A stretch of 54,298 bases of DNA. Source: Candidatus Woesearchaeota archaeon (GTDB lineage Archaea > Nanobdellota > Nanobdellia > Pacearchaeales > GW2011-AR1). The translations under genes were made by a program, and so were the position numbers. The notes under the pieces were generated by a model. The model worked only from the letters and a program-made list of their open reading frames with translations. It was not told where the DNA came from and searched no databases. The DNA is taken from positions 34,266 through 88,563 of the forward strand of contig CAYZYU010000001.1 in the NCBI GenBank assembly GCA_964482915.1, written 5' to 3'. Shown one piece after another: positions 2,336-25,148 of this stretch (its first letter is position 1; every line of letters begins with the position of its first letter).

Positions 2336-2346
2336 AATGAGGCTGC
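2336..2346 (-). repeat. 11-nt copy of the tRNA-Ile 3' end plus trailer (GCAGCCUCAUU)
   Basis: aatgaggctgc at 2336-2346 is identical to 2417-2427. It lies about 70 nt downstream (minus sense) of the tRNA. Confidence 0.6.
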
Positions 2347-22555: not shown

Positions 22556-23026
22556 ATGAGGAAATATGTTTATGAGGTTCCTGTTATCTCTCCTAGAGAA
22601 AGTTCGTTTTCTGGGAGTGATTATAATTTTCATGCTATTCTTGATGGAAAATTAGGAATAATTGCTAGAAATAAAGAGATTAATGATAATTCTTATAACA
22701 GATTAAAAAAAGAAGGAATTGAGATAGTAAAATCTTATTTATCTTATATGGATAAAAAATATAATCAGATGCCTTATCAGTTTGTAGAAGGCAGTTGGTT
22801 AGTTCATGCAATATGCGTTCCAGGAGATGCATGCGATTTAGCGTTAAGTGAAATGAGTATGAGAGATTTTTTGAACGAAGGGCTGAAGAAATTTGATCAC
22901 CAACGTACTCCAATTTGGGTGGATTATACTGGACATAATGTAGATAATATTAATCAAGCTAGATGTTTAAGAGAATTATTCATAAATTGGGCAAATCTTG
23001 TTAATATTTGTTTTAATAATGATTAA
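22556..23026 (+). CDS. hypothetical protein
   Basis: 156-aa ORF with no motif. Confidence 0.6.
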   Translation: MRKYVYEVPVISPRESSFSGSDYNFHAILDGKLGIIARNKEINDNSYNRLKKEGIEIVKSYLSYMDKKYNQMPYQFVEGSWLVHAICVPGDACDLALSEMSMRDFLNEGLKKFDHQRTPIWVDYTGHNVDNINQARCLRELFINWANLVNICFNND

Positions 23027-23373
23027 CTGGTTTTTCTTCCAATTCGTTCCGAGAAACCACACTTCCCACATTTTAACAAAATAAGATTATCTTCATCAGA
23101 ATAAAAAACTCCTAAATCAAGTATCTGTGCTTTATCATACCCGCATTTTTTGCATAAATTGGAGTAGTTTGCAAATTCATTTATACTATCTTTAATTCCT
23201 TCTCCTTTTTCTTTTTGTTTTTCTATTATCTCACTAAAAGAAAGAGTTGTTGTTTCTCCTGTTTTTGTTAGTTTGAACTCTTGACAATTATCACAAAAGG
23301 AATAAGATTTATCTTTGTCTATCTTTCCGCTTCTTACAATTCCTCCGCATTTATTACAAAAATTTAATGGCAT
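23023..23373 (-). CDS. dual zinc-ribbon protein, TFS/RpoM-like paralog
   Basis: Trimmed to ATG 23373 (MPLNFCNKCGG). N-terminal CxxC..CxxC. C-terminal ribbon CKKCGYDKAQILDLGVFYSDEDNLILLKCGKCG parallels the TFIIS-type ribbon of tfs at 24843-25148. Confidence 0.5.
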   Translation of the reverse strand: MPLNFCNKCGGIVRSGKIDKDKSYSFCDNCQEFKLTKTGETTTLSFSEIIEKQKEKGEGIKDSINEFANYSNLCKKCGYDKAQILDLGVFYSDEDNLILLKCGKCGFSERIGRKTS

Positions 23374-23378
23374 TTTAA

Positions 23379-23471
23379 AAATAAAGTGACCCCGATTATT
23401 CGAGCCCACACTGGATTATGGATTCTCTCGTGTAAACTCTCAGGATTTGAAGTTCAAATCCTTTTTTATTT
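23379..23471 (-). pseudogene. decayed tRNA-Lys-like remnant ending in an exact 18-nt copy of the tRNA-Lys 3' end plus trailer
   Basis: 23379-23396 is identical to 23472-23489 (AUCGGGGUCACUUUAUUU). Upstream, GUGGGCUCGAAU versus T arm GUGGGUUCAAAU matches 10 of 12. CAUAAUCCAG versus the anticodon-arm CUUAAUCUAG matches 8 of 10. No foldable cloverleaf. Confidence 0.5.
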
Positions 23472-23479
23472 AAATAAAG

Positions 23480-23554
23480 TGACCCCGATGGGATTTGAAC
23501 CCACGACACCTAGATTAAGAGTCTAGTGCTCTAGCCAGGCTGAGCTACGGAGTC
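23480..23554 (-). tRNA. tRNA-Lys (anticodon CUU)
   Basis: 75 nt, hand-folded. Acceptor GACUCCG/CGGGGUC (one G-U), D stem GCUC/GAGC, anticodon stem CUAGA/UCUAG, loop CU-CUU-AA, T arm GUGGG-UUCAAAU-CCCAU, discriminator A. No CCA. Confidence 0.9.
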
Positions 23555-23578
23555 ATCTTGTTTAATTATACTCTATAT

Positions 23579-23629
23579 TCAGGATGGCTTGTTCGTAAGA
23601 ACTTTAGCCAGGCTGAGCTACGGAGTCAT
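23579..23629 (-). repeat. exact 25-nt copy of the tRNA-Lys 5' end fused to the conserved 26-nt hairpin element
   Basis: 23605-23629 is identical to 23532-23556. 23579-23604 reads AAGUUCUUACGAACAAGCCAUCCUGA on the minus strand, the same element as 2518-2544. Confidence 0.85.
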
Positions 23630-23648
23630 TTTTACCTAAAAAAGATAG

Positions 23649-23657
23649 AATAAATTT
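23649..23657 (-). promoter_or_regulatory. TATA-like box (AAATTTATT) placed for a start at the outer tRNA-Lys 5' fragment
   Basis: Spans about -30 to -22 relative to the first G of the outer fragment. Confidence 0.4.
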
Positions 23658-23673
23658 GTTTAAAAATATGTTG

Positions 23674-24102
23674 TTAAACCCAGGCTTGCAGATTTTTCCA
23701 GTTCATATCCCCTTCTACCATTTCATCTGCTTTTTCTTTATCTATTGTACTTATGAAGATTGTTCTTTTGTTTTCAATGACTTTCAAATCCCCTTCATTA
23801 TTTATAATTGCCTTAAATATGGGTTCTTTGGAATCTTTTCCTATTGTTACTGAAGTTAGTGTATCTTCAAGAGAGGCTCCTGGAGATCCTGCTACAATAT
23901 CTTTGGGTATTTGATAAGATTGTTTAAAGAATAAGTAATAAGGATTTTCCCCGCTAATGTATTTTATTTTATAGGCACCTATCAAATCTTTTATTTGTTT
24001 ATTTGGGTTTAGAGAGGTATCAACTAACAAAGGGACTCCATTTACTTTAAGGGATTCTTCCTGTATTTTAAAATATTTTTTAGAAACTTCTTTTTCTCCC
24101 AT
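23674..24102 (-). CDS. hypothetical protein
   Basis: 142-aa ORF with no motif. Confidence 0.6.
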   Translation of the reverse strand: MGEKEVSKKYFKIQEESLKVNGVPLLVDTSLNPNKQIKDLIGAYKIKYISGENPYYLFFKQSYQIPKDIVAGSPGASLEDTLTSVTIGKDSKEPIFKAIINNEGDLKVIENKRTIFISTIDKEKADEMVEGDMNWKNLQAWV

Positions 24103-24174
24103 TTAGTTTTGATAATAATCTTCTTTAAAAGAATTATGAATATCTGTTATATATAGAAATATTATCTATATTCT

Positions 24175-24798
24175 TTATTGTTCTAATTTCTCTTTAATAT
24201 AATTAATTATTTGGGAGTGCTCTTTATTTAGAATTAAACCATACTTAACATCTTCTTTATTAAGATTATCTCTAATCATAAAATTTTCATTATTATATCC
24301 ATAGAATATCTCTGCAGATTTAACTGTTTTTTTATCTCTCTCAAATGACCTATTCATTATTAGATTTCTTATTATACCTCTTTTTACCATACAATAAGTA
24401 ATACCTTCTTTTTGACTGATTCTGCTTTCTTTTTCCCATATTTTTTTTATTAAATCACTTGATATAAAGTAAGTGTTCAAAACCTTTAGATTTTTATCAA
24501 GGAATCTTTGTCTTCCCCATTCTGTCTCTTGAATCAATCTTTTATTTGCATCGTGAAAATTATGAAATCCTAATGCATATATAATTGGTTCTTTAAAATC
24601 ATCTAATTTGTGAACTTGTTCTTCTTTTATTCTTTGACCCCATAGTATATTTCCCACTTTAGCTTCAACCCAGAAGTTTAATGTGGGATGATAAAAATCA
24701 GGCCCATCTTTATTGCCGCATGTTGAGATTAATTCAGGAAATCTTTCTTCTATAAATCTCTCAAATTTTAATCCTATGCTGTCTGTTACTTTAGACAT
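24175..24798 (-). CDS. hypothetical protein with a PD-(D/E)xK nuclease-like motif
   Basis: GPDFYHPTLNFWVEAKVG fits the D-x13-E-x-K spacing of the restriction-endonuclease fold. No methyltransferase nearby. Confidence 0.4.
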   Translation of the reverse strand: MSKVTDSIGLKFERFIEERFPELISTCGNKDGPDFYHPTLNFWVEAKVGNILWGQRIKEEQVHKLDDFKEPIIYALGFHNFHDANKRLIQETEWGRQRFLDKNLKVLNTYFISSDLIKKIWEKESRISQKEGITYCMVKRGIIRNLIMNRSFERDKKTVKSAEIFYGYNNENFMIRDNLNKEDVKYGLILNKEHSQIINYIKEKLEQ

Positions 24799-24842: not shown

Positions 24843-25148
24843 TTATCTATATTGTCTCCAAGTGTGATCGCACTTGGTGCATTTGAAGAACTTAGTTTCT
24901 GCTTCATCACCTGCACGGGTTTGTATTGTCCAAAAATAAGCCTTATCATTATCACACTTTTTACATTTTTCAACAACTATTGGGAAAGTATTCATCTCTT
25001 TCTTAACAACAGCCACTTTATTTTTCTCTTCAATTTTTTCAGAGGTTTTTATCTTTAATTTTTCTTTTGTAGAATAATCGCATCTAGCACATCCATAGTT
25101 CTTCCTCTTTTGAATTAAAACTGCTCCGCACTTTGGACAAAATTCCAT
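24843..25148 (-). CDS. tfs: transcription factor S (RNAP subunit M-like cleavage factor)
   Basis: N-terminal ribbon FCPKCG..CARC. C-terminal TFIIS ribbon CKKCDNDKAYFWTIQTRAGDEAETKFFKCTKCDHTW with the acidic DE hairpin. Confidence 0.88.
   Translation of the reverse strand: MEFCPKCGAVLIQKRKNYGCARCDYSTKEKLKIKTSEKIEEKNKVAVVKKEMNTFPIVVEKCKKCDNDKAYFWTIQTRAGDEAETKFFKCTKCDHTWRQYR

Follow-up and report, generated by a model that had tools for sequence, protein, structure and literature searches.

Duplicated tRNA 5′ ends and a conserved element at two tRNA loci

The stretch of DNA analyzed here, 54,298 nucleotides (nt) of a Candidatus Woesearchaeota archaeon, a DPANN member with a small genome (contig CAYZYU010000001.1, positions 34,266 to 88,563; hereafter, the window), contains two tRNA genes detected by ARAGORN and Rfam, tRNA-Lys(CUU) and tRNA-Ile(GAU), both on the minus strand. 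Each is preceded by a module comprising an exact copy of the tRNA 5′ end, a conserved element, and a spacer. At the tRNA-Lys locus, reading along the minus strand, which carries all features described in this section, a putative promoter region (23649-23666), comprising TATA-like TTTTTAAA (23659-23666) and AAATTTATT (23649-23657) as read from the sequence, places its motifs 21-31 nt upstream of an exact outer copy of tRNA-Lys nt 1-23 (23605-23627). The AT preceding nt 1 is also common to both copies, giving a 25-nt sequence, ATGACTCCGTAGCTCAGCCTGGCTA, that is exact at 23605-23629 and 23532-23556. The identity reaches nt 26, with a single A/G mismatch at nt 24, and in a repeat search the 5′ repeat extends to 31 nt (29/31 identical; start-to-start spacing 73 nt). 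The outer copy is followed by a conserved 26-nt element, AAGTTCTTACGAACAAGCCATCCTGA (23579-23604), consisting of a top hairpin (GUUC-UUAC-GAAC) and then AAGCCAUCCUGA, a complement of the outer copy's D-arm half. Between the element and the tRNA lies a 24-nt spacer, comprising an anti-acceptor segment, UAUAGAGU (23570-23577), positioned to pair with nt 2-9 of the outer copy, and an A-rich, predicted single-stranded linker, AUAAUUAAACAAGAU (23555-23569), directly 5′ of tRNA-Lys position +1. The tRNA-Lys(CUU) gene itself (23480-23554; Rfam score 66.7 bits, also called by ARAGORN) is intact and intron-less.

The same module is present at the tRNA-Ile locus. In particular, the tRNA-Ile(GAU) gene (2419-2493) is preceded by a leader module (2494-2567) with an outer copy of 23 nt (2545-2567), an element (2518-2544), and a spacer (2494-2517), with a repeat period of 74 nt, and the Ile element is the same as the Lys element everywhere outside the hairpin loop. 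The architecture claimed for both loci in a preliminary description of this DNA is thus real and recurs, and every coordinate given there at tRNA-Lys agrees with the sequence. For both elements, the number of pattern matches expected in shuffled sequence is zero, and a search for the element or its complement elsewhere in the window, allowing up to 3 mismatches, gave no further match.

The leader is predicted to fold into a conserved hairpin

Six leaders of this kind (type 1), all from few lineages, were available for comparison. The five that are complete have the same long hairpin as their predicted minimum-free-energy (MFE) fold, with z-scores of −3.2 to −4.2, and the sixth (from relative L123), which is truncated at its 5′ end, has the same core in the alignment. 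For the window tRNA-Lys leader, the whole hairpin comprises 58 nt (23570-23627, minus strand) and has a predicted folding energy of −20.3 kcal/mol (z −4.2). The hairpin contains four stems: the acceptor 5′ strand paired with the spacer (stem a), CUCAG paired with CUGA(G), UGGCU paired with AGCCA, and GUUC paired with GAAC. Two internal loops, one of 2×2 pyrimidines and one of AAA/A, interrupt the stems, the end loop varies and measures 4-5 nt, and a 6-15 nt A-rich single strand joins the hairpin to tRNA position +1.

The pattern of variation matches the predicted fold. RNAalifold returns the same core hairpin, and variable columns are concentrated at unpaired positions (5/8, vs 1/16 at paired positions; p = 0.007). 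The preliminary description had noted stem-preserving differences between the two window copies; the wider comparison bears this out, with five loop variants on invariant stems. The internal loops are kept as mismatches and are never paired (Y-C vs pyrimidines, AAA vs A). Stem a varies by tRNA and by lineage yet stays complementary (GAGGCUG/UAGCUUC, GAGGC/GUCUC, ACUC/GAGU, GCCU/GGGC, GGCU/AGCU), including compensatory changes between ACUC/GAGU in the window Lys leader and GCCU/GGGC in that of L053. Specifically, pairing of the spacer with the acceptor strand of its own tRNA is predicted at −5.1 to −8.2 kcal/mol, an energy reached by only 1.5-3.5% of shuffled spacers at each locus. The outer copy in turn follows every acceptor-stem change (GACUCCG, GGCCUCG, GGCUCCG, GAGGCUG).

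For the full precursor, the MFE structure at both window loci comprises the leader hairpin plus the cloverleaf. Folds that use the inner or the outer acceptor strand lie within 1 kcal/mol of each other, and for L010 the MFE is the outer-acceptor-strand alternative. With a covariance model built on the leader, only the known copies were recovered.

The module is present in some close relatives and absent from others

Orthologous loci in relatives were reached through neighboring proteins: a Zn-ribbon/HSP20-like protein for tRNA-Ile, and transcription factor S (TFS) for tRNA-Lys. At the Lys locus, the module is present in three other genomes. In L123, the closest relative (TFS 88% identical), the tRNA adjoins TFS. 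In L053 and L055, the tRNA has a canonical intron, and the entire cassette (promoter, outer copy, element, and tRNA; L053:3750-3935 and L055:3735-3935) is inverted relative to TFS. L118, L050, and L124 have a plain tRNA-Lys with a canonical intron and no module. At the Ile locus, the module is present in one other species. A search with the pattern GTTC-N3-6-GAACAAGCCATCCTGA identified this as the only relevant species, in a genome collection (L010) and in metagenome contigs (L035, L039); all three are the orthologous tRNA-Ile locus of a Woesearchaeota metagenome-assembled genome (MAG) and have outer copy, element, and spacer, and the remaining matches to the pattern are bacterial coding sequence. 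Two element-pattern scans of viral contigs gave chance matches only, outside any tRNA context. Plain tRNA-Ile genes are present in L046, L121, and L048, and in L043 and L045 the tRNA-Ile gene is inverted in place.

Sequences flanking the module are shared between genomes that have it and genomes that do not. In L118, the upstream gene and promoter sequence are as in the window and stand directly before the plain tRNA-Lys. Upstream of tRNA-Ile, 57 of 63 nt are identical between the window and module-less L046, and 54 of 62 nt between L010, which has the module, and L121, which is plain. The TATA-like box is located 22-25 nt before the outer copy and at equal spacing before the plain tRNAs. Because the plain relatives carry the same promoter directly before the tRNA, the outer copy stands at the ancestral tRNA start, and from this spacing and these identical promoters we infer the promoter position. 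The module itself is flanked in all six loci by direct repeats of 23-33 nt, 45-51 nt apart. The module behaves like a presence/absence polymorphism whose exact boundaries are its own direct repeats. The preliminary description had proposed that orthologous loci lacking the outer copies and element, or carrying them at random stages of decay without stem-preserving changes, would speak against a maintained module. The comparison gave both outcomes: some close relatives lack precisely the module, and others retain it intact with changes in the loop only, across genomes whose neighboring proteins are only 70-90% identical.

Two further observations concern the Ile locus. The 62 nt upstream of tRNA-Ile in the window, L046, L048, L010, and L121 fall into two promoter sequence classes, about 90% identical within a class, and the protein adjoining tRNA-Ile is only 67-78% identical between all those genomes; both classes include genomes that have the module and genomes that lack it, a hint of recombination at the tRNA locus. 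In addition, a 10-nt exact match, AGTTCTTGAA, is shared by the top of the Ile element (2534-2543) and the 3′ end of the upstream gene (2630-2639); it is not kept in L010, and as a meaningful link it was set aside as probably chance.

A second leader type has the same layout

Loci L119 and L120 contain an exact copy of nt 1-14 upstream of tRNA-Lys(UUU). The copy is followed by a 69-nt insert that is unrelated to that of type 1 and that holds GAGCUACA, an 8-nt antisense segment forming a perfect complement of nt 6-13, followed by a linker, AAAAUAC, adjoining the tRNA. The predicted fold of the L119-type leader has a z-score of −3.75. An unrelated insert with the same layout indicates that the architecture has arisen more than once. 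Downstream of the same gene (L119:2235-2470), the tRNA-Lys(UUU) 3′ end, AGGGCCATA, is repeated 45 nt further on, and the hairpin preceding this downstream copy contains a C-box-like UGAUGA.

The downstream repeats belong to separate pseudo-tRNA remnants

Downstream of the window tRNA-Lys, the 3′ end plus trailer of the tRNA, ATCGGGGTCACTTTATTT, is present as an 18-nt direct repeat (23379-23396, minus strand; partner 23472-23489; 18/18 identical, spacing 93). The preliminary description had recognized tRNA pieces in the 75-nt segment between tRNA and repeat. The resemblance stands, and it is best read as part of a full-length, 74-nt, decayed tandem pseudo-tRNA-Lys (23387-23460, minus strand), of which the last 10 nt and the trailer are exact. 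A global alignment with tRNA-Lys gives 52 identical positions, and the local alignment score is 59, vs a shuffle maximum of 37. In L118, L050, and L124, the site occupied in the window by this remnant, directly before TFS, is the site of the tRNA; the remnant is absent from L123 and L118. At the Ile locus, a copy of the tRNA-Ile 3′ end, GCAGCCTCATT (2336-2346, minus strand), marks the end of an old decayed tandem remnant, and this remnant, ending in the 3′-end copy, is common to the Ile loci of L046, L121, L010, and the window. About 50 nt downstream of tRNA-Ile are conserved among relatives (GTTGATTGTTAAGGAAACC..GGTGTCCTTACA; L046:10841-10915, L121:3332-3405, L010:20-100); this stretch is probably an old pseudo-tRNA remnant, and it contains a small hairpin.

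The two sides of the locus are separable, so that a single unit in which outer 5′ and 3′ fragments are nested, as first proposed, fails. Specifically, L123 has the 5′ module without the 3′ remnant, and at tRNA-Ile both L046 and L121 have the 3′ remnant without the 5′ module. One side occurring without the other indicates that the 5′ module and the 3′ remnant are independent features. We read the downstream segment as a tandem pseudo-tRNA, a scar separate from the module and older.

A proposed self-sequestering pre-tRNA leader

On balance, we favor, with modest confidence, the interpretation that the module is a self-sequestering pre-tRNA 5′ leader that arose by partial duplication and is removed by RNase P. 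We infer transcription of the leader, its cleavage by RNase P, and the mechanism of duplication from the arrangement described above. Transcription would start at the outer copy or a few nt before it, from the ancestral tRNA promoter, and the outer copy of tRNA nt 1-26 would pair immediately with the element and with the initial part of the spacer, forming the imperfect hairpin of about 58 nt. The hairpin would sequester the duplicated 5′ segment together with its antisense partner, leaving the real tRNA behind it able to fold. The A-rich single strand of 6-15 nt would then offer tRNA position +1 to RNase P, which would cut away the entire 67-74 nt leader. All archaeal genomes examined, including those of DPANN, are reported to encode RNase P proteins (PMC6380272); the 54-kb window itself contains no RNase P genes. 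As to origin, a local partial duplication of the 5′ third of the tRNA, together with an imperfect inverted copy, may have arisen by a template-switch or tandem-duplication type of event, and precise deletion between the flanking direct repeats would yield the relatives that lack the module. None of the papers searched describes a leader containing a self-copy; as a feature of tRNA genes it is undescribed there and probably modest.

Several observations weigh against this interpretation. The flanking repeats are close together, so that easy loss is expected, and persistence of the module argues for a benefit that an inert scar does not supply. The outer copy tracks acceptor changes, which requires gene conversion or selection. 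The same 26-nt element is present on two different tRNAs, which simple local duplication leaves unexplained. The proximity of the two alternative folds in energy makes misfolding a real cost. Finally, the core stems are invariant and, because they never vary, show no covariation in RNAalifold. The persistence of the module, the identity of outer and inner copies, and the sharing of one element by two tRNAs keep a functional reading alive, be it as a switch, a protective hairpin, or a decoy.

Alternative interpretations

In the best-surviving alternative, which we regard as a serious though minority possibility, the module acts in cis, either as a bistable switch that gates tRNA maturation or as a released 5′-triphosphate hairpin that serves as a cap, a decoy, or a protein-binding RNA. 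Because the outer and inner copies are identical, the antisense segment can swap partners at almost no energy cost, and the two predicted conformers within 1 kcal/mol fit a switch. Function would also agree with retention of the module in at least four genomes despite direct repeats that favor deletion, with internal loops conserved as mismatches, with an outer copy that stays exact while acceptor sequences change, and with the convergent layout built from a different insert in L119. Set against this, several close relatives do well without the module, some with an identical tRNA (L121, L118, L046); the comparison covers six sequences only, from few lineages; and the leader matches no known protein-binding or ribozyme motif, Rfam being empty and checks for K-turn, C/D, and hammerhead motifs having failed.

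A bolder version, to which we assign a somewhat lower, tentative standing, is that the self-mimic leader represents a new class of DPANN cis-element, a two-state switch gating or quality-controlling the maturation of high-demand tRNAs (Ile and Lys). On this version, partner exchange with the real tRNA would cost about 0 kcal/mol, selection would hold the module against repeat-mediated loss, and the arrangement would have evolved at least twice, as type 1 in the window and type 2 in L119. Such a leader could also be the intermediate, long looked for, that connects continuous tRNA genes with those that are split or interrupted.

It is unlikely that the partial copies are attachment-site scars of integrative mobile elements that were later deleted. 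Partial tRNA copies beside tRNA genes are a classic integration footprint (PMC9897764; PMC3293823), and tRNA-Lys lies in a variable island, in some genomes in inverted orientation; for the 3′ direct repeats, this explanation may well be sufficient. For the 5′ module, however, only 45-51 nt lie between the repeats, in six loci and on two different tRNAs, and the insert is complementary to, and covaries with, the duplicated part of the tRNA, which is not expected of the end of a mobile element. Moreover, no integrase, transposase, or other mobile-element gene or domain was detected across the window proteins, the element was not found in viral contigs, and the variable genes are outside the repeats.

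Hardly less doubtful, and if anything a shade more so, is the reading in which the outer copy is the true 5′ exon and the remainder, through the inner copy, is a non-canonical D-loop intron cut out by the splicing endonuclease, a step toward split tRNAs. The outer copy does sit where plain relatives begin a near-leaderless tRNA, and in DPANN, endonucleases with the L3 loop have been linked to disrupted tRNA genes (PMC5829648). A correct tRNA is obtained whichever register from 0 to 23 is spliced, a trivial and non-discriminating result, since the copies are identical. But all seven loci have a complete inner tRNA, and no bulge-helix-bulge (BHB) or bulge-helix-loop (BHL) motif can form. Such a motif has a 4-bp central helix, 3-nt bulge(s) at the two splice sites, and one or more outer helices. 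The 4 nt before each splice bulge are identical in both copies, so that the central-helix tetramer must be self-complementary; by manual inspection, only AGCU (nt 9-12) is self-complementary, and its flanking helices do not form, and CUAG (nt 21-24) is present in L010 alone. A strict BHB scan gave no tRNA-restoring candidate, and it also missed the canonical introns used as positive controls, which have relaxed BHL motifs, so that rejection of a BHB rests on the tetramer logic.

Least probable is a functional product made from the plus strand as antisense RNA, a prospect raised in the preliminary description, or from a small RNA gene of its own. This reading draws on the GUAA loop of the window Lys copy and on a near-symmetric hairpin able to fold on either strand, but is not supported, since a GNRA loop is unique to that copy (others have AUUA, GUCA, GUUA, and UUCAA), the G-U pairs holding stem a exist on the minus strand only (UAGCUUC with GAGGCUG), and the upstream promoter elements, with a spacing common to plain relatives, indicate the minus strand. 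A leader derived from a decayed tandem tRNA was also considered and rejected: it has no match to the tRNA model, and the identical middle of the Ile and Lys leaders would be unexplained. Suggestive of a tandem-tRNA origin for the ends are the period of 73-74 nt, about the length of a tRNA, and the anti-acceptor segment UAGCUUC, which equals the 3′ strand CAGCCUC with two C-to-U changes.

Gene context and tRNA gene rearrangements

The window has 30% GC and contains archaeal core genes (Cdc48, topoisomerase, PolB, RFC, eRF1, aminoacyl-tRNA synthetases, TFS); its closest named relatives are Woesearchaeota and Pacearchaeota MAGs, and it is core chromosome. The TFS gene (23023-23373, minus strand; 116 amino acids; ATG at 23373), which served as the anchor for orthologous Lys loci, is over-extended in the open-reading-frame list to a GTG at 23409, running over the tRNA remnant. 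TFS and a second TFS/TFIIS-type zinc-ribbon paralogue (24843-25148; 33% identical) stand on either side of the tRNA-Lys region.

The suggestion that the tRNA-Lys neighborhood is a variable hotspot proved correct. Between the conserved TFIIS-like gene (24843-25148) and tRNA-Lys, gene content is different in every genome compared: across the window interval (23674-24798) and its counterparts in L050, L053, L055, and L124, there are 0, 2, 3, or 4 unrelated genes, and in two genomes the tRNA is inverted. The variable genes include a ParE-like toxin, TrmB, and a methyltransferase, with no integrase, and they lie outside the tRNA repeats, not between them; tRNA fragments sought at the far borders of the variable islands gave no match. 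At its right end, the window contains a stop-free frame of at least 1453 amino acids (49,9xx-54298, plus strand) that leaves the window, presumably a giant protein gene. In a relative's contig, k141_356978 (L048, L053), eRF1 and MCM contain inteins, and a reverse-transcriptase (RVT_1) gene is located about 3.5 kb from the tRNA-Lys locus.

The tRNA genes of these relatives are themselves rearranged. In one close relative, the tRNA-Ile gene is inverted in place with flanking genes unchanged (L043:10705-10781, L045:2785-2861), and both ends of the inversion coincide exactly with the 9-bp terminal inverted repeat of the acceptor stem (ATGAGGCTG...CAGCCTCAT). The flipping of tRNAs at this inverted repeat, together with the tandem pseudo-tRNAs, points to frequent events of the template-switch type. 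Canonical-position introns of 18-51 nt are present in tRNA-Lys(CUU) of L118 (178-290), L055 (3745-3860), L124 (2847-2960), and L050 (3954-4081), whereas the window and L123 genes are intron-less. Of the intron-bearing tRNA-Lys genes, three were missed by ARAGORN and one was called tRNA-Phe.

If our interpretation is correct, tRNA genes of these little-studied, ultrasmall archaea carry a conserved, structured leader that begins with a copy of the tRNA itself and that has no Rfam family. Such loci would offer a handle on how tRNA genes become interrupted, duplicated, and inverted in lineages rich in disrupted tRNAs, and close relatives with and without the module would constitute a natural experiment on the effect of a leader on tRNA maturation. 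They also carry a warning for annotation, in that standard tRNA finders miss or miscall the partial tRNA copies and long canonical introns here.

Comparison with known systems

In Rfam searches, the tRNA alone scores above the gathering threshold, with nothing credible over the leader at E ≤ 10 and no family matching it. A box C/D sRNA was rejected by manual reading: CUGA, as in a D box, is present at the 3′ end of the element, but the 5′ AUGACUC/AUGAGGC does not fit a C box (RUGAUGA) and is missing from L053 and L055, and a terminal stem does not form. A K-turn, an H/ACA pocket, and a hammerhead core were rejected by eye.

Typical archaeal pre-tRNA leaders are short and unstructured. Like ordinary leaders cleaved by RNase P, the leader described here lies between putative promoter and tRNA position +1 and would present a single strand before the predicted cleavage site; unlike them, it is 67-74 nt long, its predicted hairpin is stable and conserved, and its first 23 nt exactly repeat those of the tRNA. 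In its order of copy, imperfect inverted copy, and copy, the module also resembles quasi-palindrome and template-switch rearrangements, such as direct-inverted-direct duplications and small inversions flanked by hairpins, a likeness that bears on possible origin and not on function. Inverted tRNA genes in relatives (L043; the cassette of L053 and L055) add to this likeness. Two independent events are made less likely by the non-templated features that the Ile and Lys elements have in common.

Partial tRNA copies (attL/attR direct repeats) that remain where integrases have inserted archaeal viruses and plasmids into tRNA genes provide another comparison, having an exact tRNA-end repeat beside an intact tRNA and a variable neighborhood. 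In Caldiarchaeum, for example, a 5′-end fragment is located 1.8 kb upstream of tRNA-Thr (PMC3293823). At the window Lys locus, direct tRNA repeats are present at both the 5′ side (31 nt, 29/31) and the 3′ side (18/18), with 48-51 nt between the 5′ repeats and no integrase between repeats. Whereas known att cases enclose 1.8-23 kb and a recombinase, here the 5′ repeats enclose about 50 nt and no gene, and the 3′ repeats enclose 75 nt. Also unlike att repeats, the insert is shared by two different tRNAs, complements the repeat, and keeps its hairpin across genomes.

The D-arm BHB introns and split tRNAs of Crenarchaeota and DPANN are similar in having an interruption in the D loop (nt 23-26 here, nt 14 in L119) and a 5′ fragment followed by structured sequence, in a lineage known for disrupted tRNA genes. 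They are unlike the present leaders in that here no BHB or BHL motif is present and a complete tRNA follows directly. No separate 3′-half gene preceded by complementary sequence, as in split tRNAs of the Nanoarchaeum/Caldivirga type, was found in the window; instead, the tail of the element pairs with its own 5′ fragment. The leader therefore resembles both att-site copies and D-arm introns or split tRNAs but fails the defining features of both.

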